A stretch of DNA of 59,376 nt, the filler included, from Sluysia triapertura (lineage: Eukaryota), in assembly GCA_046118255.1 (NCBI GenBank). It is 4 parts of 4 records of this genome, joined end to end, with 100 filler letters (N's around TTAATTAATTAA, not from the genome) between each part and the next. Parts side by side here need not be neighbours in the genome. Positions count along the whole stretch, not along the records: positions 32,105 to 46,397 come from JBJNIA010000124.1; 3 more parts are not named here. The stretch is one strand, 5' to 3'. The notes below the pieces were generated by a model that was given only the letters and a program-made list of their open reading frames with translations, was not told the origin of the DNA and made no database searches. The position numbers and the translations under genes are program-made. Shown here in pieces: positions 32,105 to 46,397 of the stretch (position 1 is its first letter; each line of letters opens with the position of its first letter).

Positions 32105-33530
32105 TTTTTAAGCGATGAATTGTGATGAACTATATGAGATGAGTTATGGTGAATATTATGTGATGAATTATGGTGAATACCGTACAACGAGTTCTCTACA
32201 TGGAGGTTTTGTTGTCACTGGTTTAGCATTCGTTGGAGCCGAATTAGGTGATGGTCTTTGATGCTACTGGTTTTGGCGATGGAGTTTTTATCTGATGCGA
32301 GTAGCGTGGAACTGTAGATGACAGTTGAGAATATGATTTGACAGTTTGTGTTGATTGGATAATCGTAGGTGTAGGTGTTGTTTTAGGAATGTCAGTCGAT
32401 GAATTATTTGACTTGATCGGAGTAGAAAAAGAAAAAGAGGGAGAAGAAGGTAGAGGAACAGAAGGAAGTTTAAGTTTCTTAGAGAGGTAAATGTGAGCGG
32501 TCAGTAGTGGGTGGATTATTGAGCAGGTTATGAAATGCAAATCTGGCTCTCGTATGTAGTCTAGCAGAGTTAGACATGCCGACATGTCAGCAGTGGACTA
32601 ATAGGGAAGATTAGTCGCAGTGTTTGGCGTGCCCTTAAAAAGATGTCATCAGTCGCAAAGGGAATTAAATTATGATTAGATAAATTTATAATTCCCCTTA
32701 ATAACCCAAAATGGATATTCATGGCTTCGATTATAAACTGTGGGTTAAGTTTTACCAAAATTTTATTTCGATGTCGTCGATGTCTTTAGCCTGTTTAAGA
32801 TCGGCCTCTGTAACGACCTGTATATTGTGACGAAAATTTTGAATCCGGCACCGAGGCTTAATACGAGCCTCTGTATGAAATTGCCTACTGTATAGGGGTA
32901 CAATTCACACATATAATTTTTGGTTTACTCAGGAAATCAGTAGCGTATTGAAAGGCTACAAACATAAGACGATCTTCGTCGTATGTCGAAAGAGGTGATA
33001 CGTGGGTGTAAGACACTCCACTCTTCCATCGACTTAAATTGTCAGTGTCTTCCGCAAAAGGGAGAAAAGATGGAACAAAAAGAGAGGCGGGTGGTAACAC
33101 AAAAAAGGATGGCAACATGGGTTGGAAACTCAAGAGCTTCCACTAAAACCTCGCACTCCTTTGTCAACTCGGAAAGTCGAAGAGTTGACAAACCCTCTAT
33201 CCGCAAAATTAATGGAGTCCCCTCTATAATTAATGTAATTTTAATGGAACCTCGCACGTATACAATATACATGGTGTCGAACGTGTCCGGTAAATTAGAT
33301 AAATTCCGCAAGGAAATAAAGGTTTGTTTTGGCGTTAATAAAGAGATGTGAGTCGCCAGGTTGTCTATGAGTTCGGACTTTAATTTACATTCTGTAAAGA
33401 AGGAGTTAGGAAAAAAGGTAGGGATGGAGTTTTCAGAGCAAAGGCGATCGACAGAATTATAGAAAGCTCTGATTTTTTCTTATGGATGTTGGGTGAGTTG
33501 GAGTTGTTGTGTTGATTTTGAACTGAAGAG
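32105..33530 (-). pseudogene. Frameshifted ORF relic with a Ser/Thr/Pro-rich C-terminal region, probably element-encoded
   Basis: Overlapping minus-strand ORF pieces 33042-33311, 32885-33133, 32570-32758 and 32244-32585 tile a region of higher GC with no intron-like gaps. Confidence 0.5.
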
Positions 33531-33636
33531 GAATAAAAATGTAGTACAATGCATATAAAAATTATAAAACGAGGGATTTCTGTACAAGTAATTTATTGTC
33601 GATTGTTTTATTATAATAAATAATAATATTTATGAG

Positions 33637-34182
33637 TTAATATTGCTTTAAAAAAGGATTTTCACACAATCGTTTATTCTTTTTATGAAACTTCCTAAGT
33701 TGGCGTCGTCGGTAATTACGCCTTTGCGATTTTGTTAGTCCTGGTGGATAATCGAGTTTTGGCACCTGAAATCCATTGTACAGGACTGCGATATTTGGGG
33801 AAGTTGGAGGTTTATAGATATCAACACTCGTGTTTTCCTGGAGCTCATGAACAGCTACAACAGGAGTTGAGTTTGATAAGATGTAATTTACAGTAAATTC
33901 ATAGGATCTACGAAAAACTTTTTTATAATAAATGTCAAATTCTGTGATTGTAGTTCGACATAGAGGACAAGGAGGCAAAGGAGTTAAAGCGGAGTCAAAT
34001 AAAAAATACAGACATCGAAAATGAAAACGGTGTTTACAAGGTATTGCTATGGCATAATATCTGTGGATCGGTCTACGGCATATCGAAGAAAGTGTAAATC
34101 GTAATATTGTTTTGCTAAAAAGTAAAAATTGTGTAATAAGATAATAGCTATTTAAAGAAGTAAAAAAAATTAATTTAAACAT
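33637..34182 (-). CDS. Intronless RING-H2-like zinc-finger protein with a basic C-terminal tail
   Basis: (S)SIC-x12-CKHRFHFRC-x12-CPLCR, a C3H2C3 pattern with the first Cys replaced by Ser. The C-terminus QRRNYRRRQLRKFHKKNKR is NLS-like. Confidence 0.75.
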   Translation of the reverse strand: MFKLIFFTSLNSYYLITQFLLFSKTILRFTLSSICRRPIHRYYAIAIPCKHRFHFRCLYFLFDSALTPLPPCPLCRTTITEFDIYYKKVFRRSYEFTVNYILSNSTPVVAVHELQENTSVDIYKPPTSPNIAVLYNGFQVPKLDYPPGLTKSQRRNYRRRQLRKFHKKNKRLCENPFLKQY

Positions 34183-34619
34183 AACACTATATATTAGTAA
34201 AAGTTTATCCTAATTATAAAATATATTGATAAAACTTATTCCTAACTAAATGGTTAACAGAGTGTGTGATTTTAATAAAATATGAGTTTCAACACCACAA
34301 CCGAAAATGGACAGTTAACAGCCTTCACACATGGTTAGTAAACAGGGAAATGCTATTACTCATTTTATACTCTATATAGTTTATACTTTAATGAAAAAAT
34401 GATTTTTATGCCTTATAAATAGATTAAACTTATGAACTTGAAATACAATGTGTATGTATGAAGTAACTAGGAGAAAACTTAATAAAATGTGATAACTAAA
34501 TACAGTATGATATAAATTTACAGAAGTAATAGAATAATTTAAACGTGAATGATTATATGATCGTGAACTTACATTTTTATTTTATGTTGTAATGAAATTA
34601 GCAGTCTTAACTTTCTTTG

Positions 34620-37060
34620 CAGTCATGCTTAGTGTAGTGGTGGTAATCACGAGTGTTTGGTAATTTATTACATCTAATTGTCTAAAATAGGTACCACTAG
34701 ATCGCACGCTCTACATTCTGGCCAAAACCCAAGAGTATCGTGAACCTCGTTGTAACTTAAAATCCAAACTTCAATAAATGTGAAGTTACGCCCTGGAACA
34801 AAAATAAATGAATACTAGTGTTGGGAAGTATTAGCGCGTAATGTTGTTCCTTATCAAATATTGTGTCGAAGTTTTTACTAGAATGATTCTTTTTCATTGA
34901 CTCGTAACCTATTAATATACTATGCTTTGTCAAGGGATTTGGTATATGAACGAAGTTATTATTCTCCCTATACAATGTCATTAAGAACTTGGTAGTTGTT
35001 GTTAGATGATTAAAAGTATATGGCTTTGTTCTAATTCTGTAGCTATATATAGACCTTGTTTTTGAATCCAAATTTGTCATAAATTCCAAATATAGAGTGA
35101 CGTTAAATAGTTGATTCTCCACAGGACCATCACAAGAGGCGATCTAGTATTTGGTATATTTACTAACATCTGATTCATAATTACACCATTTAGTCAGGCA
35201 ACAATGCATAGTAATATTAGTAATTATAACAGTATCGCTTCGTATTTTCGCGTATTTTGTACGTTGTAATGCCTTTAATGAGATTCGTGGTTTCATTATT
35301 ATTGGTTTTGCATGTATGTGAATTACACAAGTCATACATATACATGCCAGCATAACAGATTGTAAACTAGTCATTTGCCATCCTCCATATACTAAAGGTG
35401 AATGGTTATTTGTTGCATATTCGTAAACAGGAGGTGGTCTCACTGGAAATCCTGGTTGCGGCTCATAATTAGTTCTGTGCAGAATGGTATATTGATTGTC
35501 ATCGTCGTTGTGATTATATGGTAAACAGGGATATATACATCTATTTGATACGAACATGATTACTATTATAACGATAGATAGTGCAATAACGAATAATATC
35601 ACAGCTAAAATCAAAATTAATAATGCTGGGTCATTTCTTAGCATTTCGGATCATGATAAATATTTTCGTGTTCCTTTTAGTGCAAAGTGCATTTTTTCTA
35701 TTTTAGCCGGTGCTATATATACTCTTTCAACAATGTGTTTTTCTTCGTTTGGTAGAAAAACAGGATTTGCTCTATCGTTAATATAATACTGTTGTACTTC
35801 CCATGAAATTAAATCGTGCAGGTTTTAAGCAAGAAAATCTGACTTGAATGTCACTTTATAATAATTTGATTCTGACTTCAGTGTCATAATTATGGAATTC
35901 GAGGTATTCCGATTTATAAATTTGTAGATCATGTGTATTACATTGGACTGTAGTGAACACCATCATCATCATTATAGGTATCAAATTTTGATTAATGTTA
36001 CTTGTCGTAATTTTTTTTACCAAAATCAACTATCTACAATATAATCCATATGGCGTATACCACTATAAGAATTACCGAAATAATAATTAACTTATGAACT
36101 AAAGTAAAAATATTATACATAGGATCATTAGATAATAGTTTGCTAGCTTTGAACTTAGTTGTACAATTGTTTATAACTTTATTTGTTATATTTTGCATGA
36201 AATTTTGCACTTTTCTTGTATTTCTTTTAGTGTCCAATGTAAATGCTACTAACATCGTGGTATTTTATCTACATGATGTGGTTTTCCGATAAATAATGGT
36301 TTCAAATAAATGCAGCAAATATCGAATTTATGACGTAGAAACATTTTCTTCGAATTAAATTTCAATTCCCAATACTCTATATATATTTTTAATCGATATT
36401 TTTGTTCCTTTCCATTATTAATTGTTGCATATAAGTTTCTATATTCCTCATCTTCCTCAATATCTATGGATTTAACTGTACCAATTAAAGTTGGAAATAG
36501 AATTACTAATATTAATAATGAGGTCCAGAATGATTTCTTAGTTTTATAGTTATTTTTACTGGAGAAGGTGAGTATTACTGTCTCAACAGAACCAATTCCC
36601 GATGACAATGATTTTGAAAATTCACTTGTTACTGATGATATTATTGATTCAGTGGATGATTCTTCCCATAGTAAATCAGATAATCGGTCAAATGGCAGTT
36701 CAAGTGTGGGAATATGAATTGGAGTAATATCATTATAAAGAGATGGAACAACAATTTGTTGGACTAGTAATTGTGCACCGTGTGGAAATTTTATAAGTCG
36801 GTATTTACTATGTGTGACTATGTCATCTATTTTATCGAGTATATCTAAATCAATGATTAAATCGAAAGGGAAATTTCCCTAGACGTAAATATGCTTATTT
36901 ACTTGCTTGTCTAATATTTATTAAGTTAGATTTTAACTTTAGAAGTTAAAATCATAAAATCAACTCAAATTTGACATTAAATTTATAAAATTTTTAAGTC
37001 CCGATATATTGAGGGGTAAACTTTACTTAAACTTTACCAGAATCAGATTAAACGCTCTCG
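34620..37060 (-). pseudogene. Decayed intronless polyprotein-like ORF: retropepsin-like motif plus several signal-peptide/ectodomain/TM modules
   Basis: 36249-36878 is one open frame containing FPFDLIIDLDIL. ORFs 35144-35644 and 34757-35122 are in the same frame, separated by a single TAG. A further in-frame segment lies upstream across one TGA (35651-35653). There are five hydrophobic segments, a PPVY motif and NxS/T sites. Confidence 0.55.
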
Positions 37061-38037
37061 GAGCTTTAATCTTTAATATTAACTACTTTATCTTATTCTC
37101 ATAGCTTACTATTTTAAGTTTTCTAGCATTTTTGTACATTTTTTAATAAACTATTTAGAGTTTTTTGTATTAATTAATTATTAAATTGAAAGTTAAGTTA
37201 TTTAGTAGTTATAAGACCCTCATCAGTTGAATTATTAGACAGAGACGTTGTTTTTAAGTGATCTTTAACTTATTAGTTACAGAAGTGCCAACGATACGTT
37301 GTAAGACGATTACTGTAACCGAACCCTGCTAAAAAATATTTTGCCGTAGGTAAGTGTTAGAAAAATCACAGCAATTTGTATCTGATTTACCGATGATTGA
37401 ATTTAATGAGATTCTATTAAGTAAACTGATCTGATATTGATTTATTGTTACTAATAATTTCAAAGGCTCAACATGATTATTGAATTAATATGGATGGATT
37501 TTCAAAATTAGAACACACCAAAATTAAAAACCATATAAAATTTGAACTAAAATGATTGTGTATCAAACAAAAATTAAAAATGGCTGCCGAATGATGGTGA
37601 TAAAATTGTTTTTTAAAATAGTTAAAAAACAAAAATGGAGTCCATGATTAAACTTCTGTTAGTTTCCATACTAGTCATCAGCCAGTCGGAATCGATGGAA
37701 TATTCCATAATGTCCAAGAACATTATGTAAGCTTATTTTCTATTGTTGTGGTGAGTTGTTATGGCAACCTTACATAAGCGATCGCATTTGTGTCAGATAT
37801 TCAGACATAAGTAGCGCGAAATCCAGTAACATAAAATCTTCGAATCCTGAAGGAAAGCTTCTTTAACACTTTTGTGGTAAGCATTGTGATTGAAGAGTGA
37901 TCTTCAGTACTGATTAAATTCTATAATGAATAATGATAAAATTCTGTAGTTGTTAGTTATCCCACGTTTTCGTCATCTTAATTTTGTTAAATATAGCATT
38001 GACTTTTACATGATATGTCGTTCCTTTATTTTGAATA

Positions 38038-38142
38038 CACCTATCCCCCGTTTTACACGGTACTTGTTTTACACGTTTTTCCAAATAAGTTTTTTTCGTT
38101 TTTCTCAGTAACGTATCTACCATGTAAATCGGGGGATAGGTG
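38038..38142. mobile_element. 105-bp Tc1/mariner-pogo (Tigger-like) MITE
   Basis: 25-bp TIRs CACCTATCCCCCGTTTTACACGGTA / TACCATGTAAATCGGGGGATAGGTG (2 mismatches), flanked by TA on both sides. Confidence 0.92.
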
Positions 38143-39101
38143 TATTGTATTTGGCGATATTTATTTATAATTGAGAATTTGTATTAAAAGTAGAGTGTGA
38201 TTAAATTACAACTAATTATTTGGACCTGTTTTATGATTATTAAAAATATATCGATATTACAATTTAATTATTGAGTTATTTTTACTCATTTCAAACAGTG
38301 TCATAATATTACTACGTTATTTTAATATTTGGTTACGCTACTAGATTACAAAGCTTTAATGATTAAATTAAAAATAAAAATTATTTGCAAATATTTTTTT
38401 CCTAAAAAACCGATTTATTTCCATTTTATTTTCAATATTTTTAATTGCATAATACTTTATTTTTATTATGTCATGTTATATTAAGCATTTTTATATTTAT
38501 ACTTTATTAAAAAATAATTGAACTGTTGGTTTAATTCATGTAAAAACCAAATTATTAAACAAATTTTCCATAAGTAATTATAAATAGATTATATTAAAAA
38601 TTATAAATTTTTTTATAATATTAAAAAATTTAATATTATAAAGATTATATTAAAAATAAAAGTAAAATTAATGTGGATGCAAATTTTATTAAAAATAAGC
38701 AAAAAAAGCAATGGCATATATATATTTTTTAAAAATTAATCGATCATATTATAAAATAATATATAACTAAAGCAAAATAAAGAAATGGGAATAAATAATT
38801 ATATTTAAATAAAGTAAACACATTTTAAACAAACAAATGTTTTACTATTTTATTTTTATTATTTCGATAACATATATAATTGTTTTCTCATATAGTTTTT
38901 TTAATTATTAATTTTTATTTACTTCTAATTTATTTATGTATATAAGTTGTTATTTGTTCAAATTTTAATATTTATTTGTGTTTTTTATATATTGAATAAA
39001 AATCAATAACTATATTTTATCATGCCTTCAAATGGTAGAATTGTTCGCAGAGACAAGTTGAGAACGTAATTTTTGTTTTTGTTAGATAATATTTTTTTTA
39101 G

Positions 39102-41577
39102 GAAGTCTAAGCCAAAACCAGAAAATGATATTATACCTGGTCTGAAAATGCTTAAGCAAATAAAAGAAGCTAAAGCATTAAAGAAATCAGAAGATGACAA
39201 GAAATTAAAATCAAATGAAGAAATTGGTAATACTAAATCTAAAGCATGTAATATTCTTTTAGAAAAGTTAAACATTAATTTTCCGCATACATCAATTAAA
39301 GTAGATGAATTAAGCAATGATATTAATTTTGAAAATAAAAGACATTTAGATATAAATTCGGAAATAAAAGAAACAAAAATTAATAAAGTTAATAAAAGGA
39401 AATCTAATAAAAATATCAAACAGAAACCTTTAATAGGTGAAATTAATAAAGAGCCTGTGAATGATATAAAAGTTCCAGAAATAATTCTAATAAATATGAA
39501 AGCCATGGCTGAAAATAGTTCCATTGAAAAAGATGAAAATATGAAAAAAGTCGAAAATGAAGAAAAAGAATATTCAACACAATCAATGGAATGTGATAAG
39601 AAGTCTGATTCTCTTGATATGAAAGATGATGAAAAACCTAACAAGGGTTTGAAAAGAAAATCTGCAATTAAGTCAGATTATAATAAAAAAAAACTTAAAC
39701 AAGAAGATAATACTAAAGTTAATACAGCTTCTAGCTATGCTGAAGATCGAACAGGAACAAATGAAAGCAAAAAACGCACCACACGATCTATGTCTAATGT
39801 TAAATCTATTGACACTAATCAAGAAATATCAATAAATAAATTTGAAAAATCTGAAGAAAATAATGAATCTAATGAATTTGATGGAAAAGTTAAGAAACGA
39901 AAAAGTGAGAAATGTTTTAAACCTGCAAATGACATAATACCGGGTTTAATTTTGCTTAACGATATAAAATTACGAAGATCTAAGTCAGATAGAAAATCTA
40001 AAAAAGGAAACATTTCTGATGAAGCAGAAGTGTTAAATGCTAACTGCGAAATATTAGAAAAAGAAACTCCATGTACAAAAATACGTAAACCAGAAAATGA
40101 TATAATTCCTGGATTGAAAACTTTTCGAACAATTGAAAAAAAAATAAATAAGAAGGTAAACGGAAACTATGCTGAAAAACCACAAATAGAAATAGATTCT
40201 AGTTTGAAAAAAGCTGAATCTACCGAGGATAATGAAATAGAAAATAGTTTACAAAAGAAATATGTTAAGAAGTCAGAAAATGAAATAATTCCCGATTTAA
40301 AAAATGTTAAATCCGATTTAGATATTAAACCTGCTGAAAGATCAAAAGGAAAATCTAATCAGCATCCAGGAAATGACGTTATTCATGGGTTGGAATCATT
40401 TGAAAATAAGATGGATAAAAAATTAAACAGGAAATCTAGTGTGAAACATCAATCTAATACAGAATCTTGTGAAGATGGTAAAGTATCTGAAATACCACAA
40501 AGTAAGTCTGTTCAGAAAACCAAAAAAGAAATAATTCCTGGTCTTAAAAATGTCAAATCTGATGAAGAAATCAAAATGTCGCAAAACACAATTCCCGATT
40601 TAAAAGACAAACCAAAATCAATTCAAAAAACTTACAAGCCTGAAAACGATATTATCCCTGGTTTGAAACTGTGTAATTCTTTACAAAGAAAAAATAGCAC
40701 AAAAGCTGTAAATTTAATCAGTACTTCGAAAGATTTACAATTGTCAGATTATGCTGGTGAAGAAAAACAATCAAATAGAGAAAAGGATGGATTTGAAATT
40801 ATTCCAGGATTAGCAAAAACAGTTTCAGTAAATGTTAAAAGTACAGATTTAAACACTAATAATTATCGACAAGATTTATCAGAATGTAAATATATTTCAC
40901 CAAGATATAAAGAAGAATCATTTTATTCAACATTTGTTATAGATGAACTAAAGGATAGATATTTAAATAAACCAAAAATTTCAGAATCCGATATGAATTG
41001 TTCTACTAATAATGTTGAATTGGCTGATATAAGTCGTAAACGTCAACATACGATGGGCAATTTTAACGACTCTAGATCTCCATTTGTGGGACTTAAAAGA
41101 TTTAAATTCGACACCGATAACTTAACACCAAATTCTATATTAAAATCTCGATCTAAATATGTATCAAGTCACACTAATAACAGTCAAAACTTAATATCTG
41201 AAAGTAGTACATCTCGCAAACCTAGTGTAAAATTTGTTGAAATGGTGGAAGTGAAAGAATTTAATGGAAATTCATTTAATATTGATTCTGATAATGGAAT
41301 TGAAAATGATCATTCGTCGCGTGATAATTTAATTAGTTTAACACCAAATATTCAAGGTGGATCTCTGAAATCAAAATCTAGTATTGATGTGGAAATGAAA
41401 GAAACGAAAATGCAGAATTTCTGGAACAATATGAAATCATTTGCTTTTGATAGTGCTAATCGAAATGATGGAGAGAATAGTACGGACTTGAATAATTCCT
41501 TGCTGACATCAGATGAAGATAATTCTATGGATACCAGCGATCAGATACAAGAAAAATCAACTTGTAATATTATGTAA
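39102..41577 (+). CDS. Large terminal exon of a K/E/S/N-rich disordered protein with IIPGL repeats and SILK/RVxF-like motifs
   Basis: 2.5-kb uninterrupted ORF with a T-rich AG acceptor at 39100-39101 and stop TAA at 41575-41577. About 9 copies of KPENDIIPGLK-like motifs. Confidence 0.9.
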
Positions 41578-44500
41578 TTAAGAACAATGATTTATCATAC
41601 TGTTTGAATATTTAAATTTAGTTTAGTATACATAAAATTGTGTTATTTATATTTTTAAATTATGTAATTATTCAAGATAATCATATTAAAGCATTCGATG
41701 CATTGACTATCCTGTATGTGGTTTTTGTATCACGTTAAACATTATGCGTTTTCCTTGAATTATCAATATTACGTTATGTAGATGTTAAGTAAAGCTGTAA
41801 CCAATAAATTGTCACAATTTAAGTTATTAATAATTAATATTTTTAAACTTGGACATGATTGAATTCCGCAATAGTTGGTTGACAATGAAATTAAAATTTA
41901 TTCTTGCTTACTTGCACATTGTAATAAAATAGTTATTTTTGAAACGGGAAGTGATTGCGTTAAATAATCTTTGAAGTTGAACATTTAATCACATAATATT
42001 GAAAAATTTGGAAATAATAGGTTGGCATCACAACCTTTTAAAATTGATTTCGATAAAAGAAAATGTTTTCTACGATAGAAATCGAAAATACATTAACCTT
42101 TCATATGTATTTCTTTATACTTTTCGTTCTGCATTCAACAAATTTTACGTCGGCTGAGGATATATATGTGCTATGGTTTATTAGCACTACAGCAAATATA
42201 TTAAACGACCTACAACATAGAGTGAACGTTCCTGTAACTATAAATTATCAGATCTTAACGTAAAATATATTTCGTCTAATATATCTTCTAATTAGTCTTC
42301 ACTAGTGCACGTATTTAGAGGGTCCAAAAATAAAAGGCTATTAATAAAATTCAAATTAATTTAGTTTCAAATTTCTTACTTTTTTAACATGATTTAATTT
42401 ACTTTTTATTTTAAATAATCTTATTCTTTTTTGCCAAAAATGGTAATTATATCCATCCTGTTAAATAAAACAATAATTCGACAAATGTCTGTATTCACAA
42501 TAACAATTATTTGTACACATTTCTTTTATTAAAGTAGAATACTTCCAAATAAACACGTGAGATGATAATAAACAATAATAAAAGTAATAATATGCAATAT
42601 TAAAATTAAAACCACTTTAATGTAAAATTGAAAACATTTTAAAACTGACTTTATTCCTCAATATAATGGGAATGTGCATTGAAATTTGTGTATTTTAGTA
42701 TATTAATTTTCGAAAAATTCATATTCCCGTAACAAAAATTACTTACGAATGATATGGAAAACTTAATAGAGTTGATGGATATTGTTCTGAATGAATGATT
42801 CCAAATAATCACTGCAGTCGAAATGACGAAAATCCAAACGCTGATGTTGCTAAGAATTGTTAAGTCGTAAGCGACGAATTCTCGATACGATTATAATGGC
42901 TTAAACGTCCTTTATAAATTTTGTAAAATACAAAATAGCCACTTCAAATTATGGTTGCTTGGTTATTCAGCTGCAGCTCTATATACGAGCTGTCAGCCAA
43001 TCAAAAGCTTATATAATTCTAAAATGTTCTAGAAAATTTTAGAAACTTATAAGAGAATTTTCTTTTTTGGAAAATAAGATTTTTAAATGGTTGTGATGGC
43101 AATCTAACTGATGTTATGTGTTTTTATTTTATTTTCAAACTTTTGCAAAATGAATGTAAGGGTTTGCCTGTAGTCTACGATTTTATGCTATTTAGAATAA
43201 AGTTATTTTACAAAAAAAGAAAATTTATTTAAAAAACATTATTTTTGTTTAACTACACTATTTTAATAAAAATAAGTCAAGGTCATTGACTTCAATATAA
43301 ATAGACACTGCCATTTTAACAATTGAACCATTTAAGACAAGGTAACAATTTAAAAATAGAACAATTTAAGAACAGAACAATTTAACAAAGAACCGTTTAA
43401 CAATTTAATTAGAAAATAGCTCTTGTTGGTCCACCAAATTGCAAATTATTCTTCTCGTCAAGTTTTATACAAATATTTATACAAATTTTGATTTTAATTT
43501 ACATTATTATTAATATTATTATTACTGTAATTAATCCTATTTTATATTTTAATAATAAATTTAATTTTTAGTTGTTTTTTAATAGACGGATAGAATTTTT
43601 TGACCCTCCAGATAGTTTAAGTAAGACTAAATAAGCTAAGCATAATTTTTTATACTACAGCCGGACCCTGCTCAATTTTATTTTGCCGTAGGTTTAACGA
43701 AAAATCTTTAAATAATTGGTTCATCGATAGAAGATGGCTGATAACTTTATGGTAAGTACCTCTGTAAGATTTTTAGTGTAAAATTTCATTACTAAGGCAT
43801 ATCTCCTAACTACAATTACTTAAGGAAACAGATCATTTCACGAATTCTTTTATTAAAATTCTTAACAACCGTTAACATTAATGACGTTATTATTGACCGT
43901 AATTAATCCTTTAGTTTTAGTATTCTAATATTATAATTCTTTTCGTTGTTTGTTTTATGATTTACAATTAATAATGACATAAGACAGCAATATCTAACTC
44001 GAAATAATTATAAAAATCAGTATTCTAAGGCTTATTATAAAATGTCGGCTCTAATAACAATGAATAGTTTTAATGTATTAAACTAAGCTTAATGTAAAAT
44101 AGCAGTAAACTACTGTGATTTTAAATTTTTGAATTAATCAAGGTTAAAATAAACTTATTTAATTACAAACATGGACTTGATAAACTACTTATTTAGGCGT
44201 TGCCCTAATTAAAATAAGAAAATTGTTATTGTTACTATTGTTATTATATTATTATTATTATGACTAATTATCATGATCAACTTAAGTCCTACCTTTATGT
44301 AAGACAATATTTAATTTAACAAACTACTTTTTAATATTTGTTTTTTGTAAACAATGAGGCTTTGTTTACTAATCGTTAATTTTGTGTTAGACTTCAATTT
44401 ATAAAATTTAGACTTCAAAATATAAAATTTGGGGTGACTTAAGCAATATTCTCAAATGATAATGCTTTGAATTATGTCTTAGTATATTTAATTTGCAATA

Positions 44501-46123
44501 TGTGCCATTAAATCCCCACTATTTAATCCTTTTATAATGAATAAGTATAAAACAAACTTATTATTGTAAAATAGTAGACGATAACAATTACAAAAATTAT
44601 ATTTTTCATGAATATATATAGTAATTCTTTTTTATATTGACGATCACAAAACAACCCATCAACCGTAGTTGTTGGTTCAAGTTCTATTAATCTAGATAAC
44701 CTAGGACATCGCTGGTATACATTAAATGTTCAATGATGTTATCTCAACGGCTACTTGTTTCGACAATATATAATACCAATTTAATTGTACATGGCTCTTT
44801 GTTTGGATTTGAAAATTTTTACCAAAAATCTCATTTGTCCCTTTTTATGCCTTATTTTGATGCAATCACATTAGCTTTCTTAATATAAAATTCATCTAAA
44901 CCATGTAAAAATGTCGTAACATAACAAAAAAAACTCCAAATTGAATAACATTATCGGGTTCGTCACAATACATAAAAAAAGTTCTCCGAAATGATGAGTT
45001 TTTTAATAAATTTTAGAAATTCAAATATATTTAATAAAACTTTTGATAAAGTTTTGTTAATTACAAATGCTATCAGTCTTAATAAATAATTATTACTTCA
45101 TAATAAACCGTATTTAGTTGTATCATTCCACTAACATCAATCTTAAAAATTATTTTGATACATGAACTTTTCTTAGAATTTTTCATAATTATTTAAACTA
45201 TCGAAACACTAAATAAATAAAAAACTAAATATTGGACATTATTTTGAAATGTACTTACGAATATATTTGTTTTATTCATAAACCATACGTAAAACAACTC
45301 ATTTAATAAACAATCTTATAAAAATGTAATCAATCTTTATTGATACATTAAACAAAATGAAATTATTATCATTATTATTATTATTATCATTATAATAATT
45401 ATTATTGCTTTAGTTTTGTTGCTATTGTCTAGTACTATGATTGTAGAAATTTTCTTTTCCATGTATTTGTTTATTTTATTTTATCTCTATTTATAAATAT
45501 GATCATAAAAAAATCCATAAAAATGAAATGAAATATTTTGTTTTATTTTCATAAATATTTATATTTATTGCACTTATAAATAAATATGTCATATATAAAT
45601 TTGTTAATCAAAAAACGAATTTTTATTTTGTGAGTTTAGTTCAGCTCAAGTACTTGTAAAGGTTTATTAATGAAATATTTTAAAATGTGATAACTACAGG
45701 TTGGTTATATATAAATATGTTTAAAGGTTATTATATATCAATGTATAAAATACTATTAAAAAATACTATTGGAATAATCTTTCAATTATGGATTTTTGAA
45801 AATTGATCTTTTACTTAGCTTATTTAACTTAATAGTTGTGAAAAGTAATAATTTAAGTTTTTACAATGTTTTTTATTTTGCACTTGTTTTAAAAAAACTT
45901 AATTAAATAGGACTAACGATACAAACTGAAAAAGTTCAAATATATCAATGTCGATGTAATTCTTGCTGATTTAATCCTTGAAAATATAAATGTTGATATT
46001 TGTGGTCAGGTCTAGATGATAATTTGTTACACTATTTAAATTAAAATAGTAATTTTGTATTAAATATAGTTTTGTTCTGTGGAAATTTATAGTAAAACTT
46101 ATAGAATAAAGCGAAAGTTTAGT

Positions 46124-46397
46124 GTGAGTTTACCAACTTACTGGGCTTACTGGTTAGGGTTAGCCGTTGGGTTTTATAAATTAAGAGTCTTAAGTTATGC
46201 TTAAAAAGAAAATACTCGAGAACCTCAATACTTAATTATGCTTTTAACTGTCTGGAGATAAGTCAGAAATTTTAGTCAATTTATCAATAATAATAATGTT
46301 AATAAGGTGATTTTTCGATAATTCCCTAAAATGGAATATATAAATTTATTTTACGTAGTTAGACTTAAAATCTAACTTTTGGAAAGCTTGTCTAACA
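46124..46397 (+). repeat. Dispersed repeat, copy 2 (copy 1 at 29231-29460)
   Basis: Collinear similarity blocks with the 29.2-kb copy. Runs into the contig end. Confidence 0.8.

Follow-up and report, generated by a model that had tools for sequence, protein, structure and literature searches.

A dead copy of a Burro-type Ty3/gypsy polyprotein tail in Sluysia triapertura, with a probable second protease and three predicted type-I membrane proteins after the integrase

The feature described here lies on the minus strand of a window of 59,376 nucleotides (the whole stretch of DNA analysed, filler included) from the genome of Sluysia triapertura. It is a dead copy: what remains is the 3' end, decayed and truncated on its 5' side, of a polyprotein gene from a Ty3/gypsy LTR retrotransposon. 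The element is a high-copy member of the Metaviridae whose domains are arranged as in Burro, gag - env - protease - RT - RNase H - integrase, an assignment made by domain order, no named Burro sequence being among the integrase and protease-2 matches listed. We consider it highly probable that the copy derives from a Burro-type polyprotein tail in which a second protease and three predicted type-I membrane proteins come after the integrase without a break in the reading frame. Textbook retroelements have a single protease, and their pol stops at the integrase or at most at a chromodomain.

The window copy and its element

The copy was found on the third of the joined parts of the window (positions 32105-46397, JBJNIA010000124.1; GC 27%; locus G000:C124). 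By family similarity in translated searches, the unit extends from 36917 to about 34381, and not from 37060 to 34620 as the original prediction had it: all family alignments end at 36917 or just below, tblastn alignments to three other copies (L087, L051 and L013) start at 36917, and a stalk, the third membrane anchor and the stop, at about 34381, lie beyond 34620. The stretch at 36914-37379 is a different repeat, which is not part of the element and cuts it off inside the protease; the catalytic DTG half of the protease is therefore absent from this copy. A vote of 38 other copies indicated seven frameshift-like bins (two of them adjacent), and several stops were found in addition; the earlier description had a unit broken by a few stops and frameshifts. 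All peptides quoted in that description were recovered by translation on the minus strand and in the order given; the second signal motif was located among them, with four Met residues and not three. The proposal that the pieces form one intronless unit also held, as other copies carry them in single open frames of 940 aa (L082), 983 aa (L086) and 567 aa (L013). The features of the copy and its surroundings are listed in Table 1.

Table 1. Features of the window copy and adjoining sequence (positions along the whole window)
Feature	Position	Strand	Evidence or remark
Unrelated dispersed repeat, about 465 bp	36914..37379	.	89-91% identity to five other loci
C-terminal remnant of second (post-integrase) aspartic protease, without catalytic DTG half, one stop	36800..36917	-	tblastn; Pfam in intact copies
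HIYV	36893-36882	-	
DLIIDLDIL stretch	36878-36837	-	
Pro/Ser-rich linker, predicted cytosolic	36531..36799	-	translation; same linker in all subfamilies
Module A: signal-peptide-like segment, two-Cys beta-rich ectodomain, stalk, anchor 1; frameshifted	36037..36530	-	
Signal 1	36530-36468	-	
LSNDP	36135-36121	-	
Module B: signal-peptide-like segment, two-Cys beta-sandwich ectodomain, anchor 2, Cys/Tyr/Pro-rich tail with PPxY	35375..35984	-	
Signal 2	35984-35940	-	
LRNDP	35641-35627	-	
Anchor 2	35626-35549	-	
PPPVYEY (PPxY of module B tail)	35437-35417	-	
Module C: signal-peptide-like segment, two beta domains (first FN3-like), NxS/T-rich stalk, anchor 3, short basic tail, stop	34381..35374	-	
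Signal 3	35374-35309	-	
Accessory frame: RING-H2 finger, Arg-rich C-terminus, after acceptor-like site	33637..34115	-	Pfam zf-RING_2 E 9e-6
Last accessory frame, broken; weak DEDD exonuclease-fold similarity; Ser/Thr-rich end	32244..33523	-	

Two accessory frames lie downstream of the unit. In the subfamily of the window copy the RING-H2 frame is preceded by a polypyrimidine-AG site, the AG of which is kept in about 16 of 19 copies, and has no in-frame ATG before the finger, an ATG being present in other subfamilies; the window copy has lost the first Cys of the finger. An acceptor-like site, conserved in 10 of 10 copies, stands before the last ORF, which shows weak similarity to DEDD exonucleases (E 0.006 to the PolC proofreading domain, and RNase_T matches for 2 of 36 rows). 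The LTR downstream of this frame is not on the contig, which ends short of it. Elsewhere on the same record, 36914-37379 and 38770-39100 each hold a piece of an abundant non-coding repeat (40 matches scored, 85-91% identity), and on the plus strand 39070-41577 is an open frame of 835 aa, probably a large host exon, in which an ENDIIPGLK-like motif recurs about ten times.

A search of the genome for further copies, a linked RT and terminal repeats, as suggested at the outset, found all of these in other copies. The window copy gave 45 DNA matches, a lower bound with 40 of 2215 candidates scored, the other copies being 73-86% identical; protein searches gave at least 92 and at least 151 matches in several subfamilies, down to about 35-50% identity. 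The Pfam order in these copies was Retrotrans_gag, Monjiviricetes_fusion, RVP, RVT_1, RT_RNaseH, Integrase_H2C2/rve and the second protease; the PR-RT-RH-IN order, with its H2C2 and rve integrase, was seen there and is absent from the window copy. Gag was recognized by Pfam (Retrotrans_gag, E 5.5e-7), as was its CCHC knuckle (zf-CCHC, E 5e-4). A Bcl-2-like region before env is weak (Pfam Bcl-2, E 0.02; many Bcl-2 chains at E 1-2, below a match to Mx1). The env itself, between gag and protease, is a Monjiviricetes-type fusion protein (PF24664, E 4e-58). A conserved 130-aa spacer separates protease 1 from RT, and no dUTPase match was obtained for it in Pfam or the PDB.

These copies bear on what the unit had been taken for. 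It does belong to an env-bearing retroelement, since LTRs, RT, integrase and a fusion-protein env upstream of pol are found in other copies; its Burro-type GAG-ENV-POL order means that it can be classified, although the first description had not assigned it to a known family. The modules themselves do not represent the envelope, a fusion protein being already present upstream of pol, and a captured structural polyprotein of an RNA virus does not agree with a tail in frame with the integrase or with dispersed, LTR-bearing copies.

That all these parts belong to one polyprotein rests on overlapping frames of different copies, because no copy seen is fully open. The env anchor, protease 1 and the start of RT share an open frame in L159, the integrase and protease 2 do so in L087, L083 and L133, and in L082 the frame is open from protease 2 to the final stop. 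Among the copies examined there was no unbroken gag-to-env or RT-to-integrase join, and none of the contigs examined held a whole element with both LTRs. Of the 57 loci that hold at least six parts, 48 are colinear; where integrase and module B lie on one strand (48 loci), protease 2 is present in 41, overlapping loci being counted more than once in both figures. The LTR is about 1.1 kb long (1082-1172 bp) with TG...CA ends, and the same LTR end was found upstream of gag and, on a different contig, downstream of the last ORF; 4-bp target-site duplications were present in three of five solo-like LTR copies, and a PBS-like site follows the upstream LTR end, before gag. Adding the parts gives an estimated element size of roughly 16-18 kb. 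In two copies (L050 and L094) an internal deletion joins the protease-1 region to downstream parts, and RT to integrase is gone.

The second protease and the membrane modules

The protease had been proposed from one degenerate motif, which turned out to be the end of a real retropepsin. In intact copies protease 2 matched Pfam gag-asp_proteas at E 1e-7 (above the cut-off in L082, L086 and L006), and DTG was present in 42 of 58 hits under a strict pattern; judged from sequence, its D-T/S-G catalytic motif and C-terminal hydrophobic-G-x-D motif, in a domain of about 100 aa, are those of an A2-type retropepsin. Protease 2 shares 29-34% identity with protease 1, and its versions in different subfamilies share 36-49%. 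The five sampled protease-2 rows of the element group together (support 97), away from protease 1, which makes an origin by recent duplication of protease 1 within the element less likely. A single origin of all post-integrase proteases gave a p-AU of 0.054. The RT-adjacent proteases are split from all extra proteases with weak support (84), which, with the position of the extra proteases next to membrane blocks, fits a specialised role. A hydrophobic word, fitted by eye, precedes 9 of 11 post-integrase proteases, compared with 1.7% of background windows, and may mark a cut site. The extra protease would likely cut the integrase free of the membrane-bound tail. It is present after the integrase in 7 of the 16 best relatives; as the other 9 do without it, it is not essential for the tail plan. 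Several related polyproteins (P0001, P0003, P0008 and P0011-P0014) contain two or three aspartic-protease domains, one of them right after the env anchor.

The predicted layout of three serial signal/ectodomain/anchor modules was borne out by hydropathy, motifs and the frames of other copies, the signal-peptide and anchor calls resting on hydropathy and motifs. In the L082 frame a short hydrophobic segment, an ectodomain and a long anchor follow each other clearly twice; the third signal segment is below the hydropathy thresholds used, but is predicted to be helical and is hydrophobic in all subfamilies. Small residues at -3/-1 of the signal segments, read by eye, are kept with different letters across subfamilies. 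An LxNDP motif had been noted upstream of two anchors, but LxxDP precedes anchor 2 in 35 of 41 rows and anchor 1 in 0 of 40, so that its recurrence in the window is due to chance.

The PPxY of module B had been regarded as a viral late domain. PPxY or LPxY occurs in 22 of 36 module B tails (14 are without it), and PPxY in 20 of 35 of the element's own tails; better kept in these tails are Y[TS][IVM]P (32/35) and a juxtamembrane Cys (33/35), and an acidic Tyr motif is found in 28 of 35. Since PPxY is missing from whole subfamilies and another PPxY is present in the gag-env spacer (5 of 15 rows; L158:1199-1768 and related), the case for a late domain in module B is weak. On the gag side, the spacer motif is itself a candidate late domain.

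Purifying selection acts on the modules, with dN/dS of about 0.3. Median values, obtained from the first 50 of 123 alignment rows with non-independent pairs, were 0.26 for A (30 pairs), 0.29 for B (320), 0.28 for anchor 2 plus tail (268) and 0.31 for C (19), as against 0.74 for the first stalk. Between subfamilies A and B, identity was 78% in the integrase, 85% in RNase H, 48% in protease 2, 60, 54 and 36% in the ectodomains and 73% in anchor 2 plus tail. A long coiled-coil-like insertion was observed in the module A stalk of one copy (L086:1100-1450), the frame of which stays open for 983 aa. It could be argued that the chief function of the tail is to hold Pol at the membrane during assembly and that the ectodomains are incidental, as topology is better conserved across the clade than ectodomain sequence and anchor 2 plus tail is the best-kept part; a single anchor would suffice for this, however, and every one of the three ectodomains has a conserved Cys pair and shows purifying selection, which makes such a role improbable.

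An AlphaFold2 model of the cassette (mean pLDDT 66, pTM 0.32) displayed beta-sandwich ectodomains. The first domain of module C matched an FN3 domain of IL-22R1 (Z 9.4, rmsd 2.3 over 85 residues) and, in a second FN3 comparison, gave Z 9.0 and rmsd 2.8 with 88 aligned; the ectodomain of module B had an Ig-like match at Z 7.8-7.9, and module A alone reached a best Z of 5.0 (pLDDT 63.5). All of these are generic beta-sandwich matches at 5-13% identity, to common folds that say nothing of function. A profile built from 16 FN3-like domains of relatives, partly circular in that the motif picking the domains was chosen by eye, scored C1 at a median of 8.4 bits versus 0.5 for shuffled sequences (shuffled 99th percentile 8.7); B was barely above the shuffles, and A and C2 not at all. 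The models suggest that one ectodomain folds like fibronectin type III and that one does so weakly.

Sequence searches returned little for the modules. Pfam fn3 was not matched, 123 rows giving only scattered membrane-segment matches; phmmer of the cassette against 1.84 billion representative proteins gave six matches, to the protease part only; a PDB profile search gave none; and no significant homology was detected when modules A, B, C1 and C2 were compared with one another. Foldseek with the whole model was uninformative (TM 0.15 or less), comparison with phenuivirus precursors gave TM 0.11 or less and rmsd over 30, with no fusion-protein fold for the modules, and module A matched no viral fold at E 0.001. 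The ectodomains are about 100-200 aa long, with no fusogen among the domain-level structure matches. A complex prediction of module B with A and C, made without alignments, scored 0.00 and was uninformative.

The FN3-like folds and Tyr-rich tails do resemble animal receptors, as might be the case if the element passively carried a captured host gene or RNA-virus glycoprotein gene, or if the pieces were separate host genes. The cassette, however, is intronless, in open frames with the integrase and at colinear loci, with dozens of dispersed copies with LTRs; it is under selection across subfamilies only 28-60% alike, and the homologous-protein searches gave neither a host nor a viral homologue of the module sequences. 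We regard a captured or host origin of this kind as most improbable, and retain the reading of an element-encoded tail with a second protease and three membrane proteins.

Relatives and known systems

Relatives in other genomes were sought with a query of integrase plus protease 2 (proteins of 1116-3185 aa; 120 of 455 matches listed), a query that favours protease-2 carriers; the length filter was applied to both groups compared below. The best 16 among 122 integrase-matched proteins analysed are 49-59% identical, and all run more than 300 aa past the integrase; two or more hydrophobic segments were found in 14 of these tails, one in one and none in one. Ranks 17-18 have short tails. Among the other 104 matches analysed, two had a post-integrase protease and three a long tail with two hydrophobic segments, one of the three being a fragment of a top-16 cluster. 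In a tree of 50 rows (the 16, the element, one further top match and a random 32 of the rest) the best 16 and the element formed one side of a branch supported at 100/99. The tails of the relatives consist of a single unit of signal, ectodomain and anchor, and in most of them the same two-Cys FN3-like motif recurs; an unrelated Cys-rich domain takes its place in P0020, P0021 and P0023, and in two relatives ankyrins stand between protease and signal, after the integrase. Three tandem units were seen only in the Sluysia family, among the relatives listed. By sequence, the long post-integrase tail plan is shared across the clade and is simpler in the closest relatives. The significance of these results is that a well-supported env-bearing clade extends its polyprotein into extra proteases and predicted type-I membrane proteins, of which the Sluysia family has three in tandem, under selection.

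Serial units of internal signal peptide, ectodomain and anchor in one chain are familiar from the glycoprotein precursors of bunya-, alpha- and flaviviruses; unlike these signalase-processed viral precursors, the Sluysia cassette sits in a retrotransposon, after the integrase. The giant planarian Ty3/gypsy elements Burro/GYPSM1 share with the Sluysia element one long ORF, gag with a CCHC knuckle, a Bcl-2-like region (only weakly matched in the Sluysia element), a mononegavirus-like env placed before the protease and followed by PR-RT-RH-IN, separate accessory ORFs, and decayed copies in an AT-rich genome (PMC6431247). They are over 30 kb long and carry MATH, BIR and ankyrin domains, whereas the Sluysia element is probably smaller, to judge from its 1.1-kb LTR and the size estimate above, and none of these domains was found in the element ORFs scanned, which come from partial copies. 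The available portion of the Burro text (PMC6431247) mentions no second protease, signal peptide, fibronectin or post-integrase membrane protein.

GAG-ENV-POL errantiviruses of Platyhelminthes, Nematoda and Bryozoa likewise have env before pol, of HSV/gB type, and by eye the Sluysia env resembles the Smed_errantivirus_1 ectodomain row (PMC13524379). In contrast to the Sluysia tail, only chromodomains are described C-terminal to the integrase in the accessible part of that paper, the main text of which gave 0 hits for 'fibronectin', 'ankyrin' and 'second protease'. In the available sections of the report on Juno, Vesta and TelKA of bdelloid rotifers (PMC5408684), membrane-protein and DEDD-exonuclease frames are found downstream of pol, comparable with the layout seen here, and a dUTPase slot lies between PR and RT, at the place of the 130-aa spacer of the Sluysia element, but the ORF3s are separate, single and without an extra protease, and env follows pol. 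The portions of PMC8532177 and PMC11410931 that were consulted hold nothing bearing on the tail. The kind of element is already known, and the post-integrase protease and membrane cassette were not found in the literature searched; the original Burro report, Repbase GYPSM1, figures and errantivirus ORF files may hold a description of the tail.

Possible roles of the tail

Of the model presented here, the domain order, open frames, purifying selection, LTR and clade-wide tail plan were demonstrated. The polyprotein would thread the ER membrane at env, leave pol in the cytosol and re-enter the membrane at each internal signal, such that pol would be cytosolic between two membrane-bound blocks, env before it and the cassette after. 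Host signal peptidase would likely release three predicted type-I glycoproteins, separate at the surface and made about 1:1 with Gag and Env. The tail likely lets the element engage host cells beyond its fusion protein.

One quite possible, if still tentative, explanation is that the glycoproteins are accessory surface proteins mimicking host receptors, the FN3/Ig-like domains of which would bind host ligands or cells, and that the Tyr/Pro tail of module B would dock ubiquitin-ligase or SH2 adaptors. We favour this explanation because the ectodomains are fast-changing and swappable and the module B tail is well kept; it would also suit an element with a RING finger and a weakly matched Bcl-2-like region. 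As the modules have no homologue in Pfam, among PDB sequences or in the representative library, this role is conjectured from the architecture.

A second explanation, with the same element and the same processing, is that the fusion protein, which is of gB type, has the three glycoproteins as its partners in the virion, where they would help in attachment, triggering and budding. Herpesvirus gB needs gD and gH/gL, and partners encoded in the same reading frame as Gag and Env would likely be equimolar with them. The signal-plus-anchor tail is present in nearly all clade members, PPxY occurs in 20 of 35 of the element's own tails and in 3 of 16 tails of relatives, and the flatworm GAG-ENV-POL elements have an HSV/gB-type env (PMC13524379). 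The kind of ectodomain, however, varies in the clade (Cys-rich in P0020, P0021 and P0023), which is odd for a core entry part, and PPxY is also found on the gag side; we consider virion partners conceivable but doubtful. Should the proteins serve either in attachment or, as we tentatively prefer, as receptor mimics, they would provide handles on the choice of target cells or the alteration of host signalling by invertebrate errantiviruses, matters called elusive for most elements in the part of PMC13524379 available.

At the level of the clade, the tail may belong to a multi-glycoprotein envelope made from one polyprotein, with a gB-type fusogen before pol and a swappable, FN3-like receptor-binding set after the integrase, freed by a dedicated second protease lineage and signal peptidase. 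We think this rather unlikely; if true, fusion and attachment would be divided in a retroelement much as they are in herpesviruses. One member of the clade, P0022, is labelled as a bacterial hypothetical protein in NCBI and likely comes from a mis-binned animal contig.
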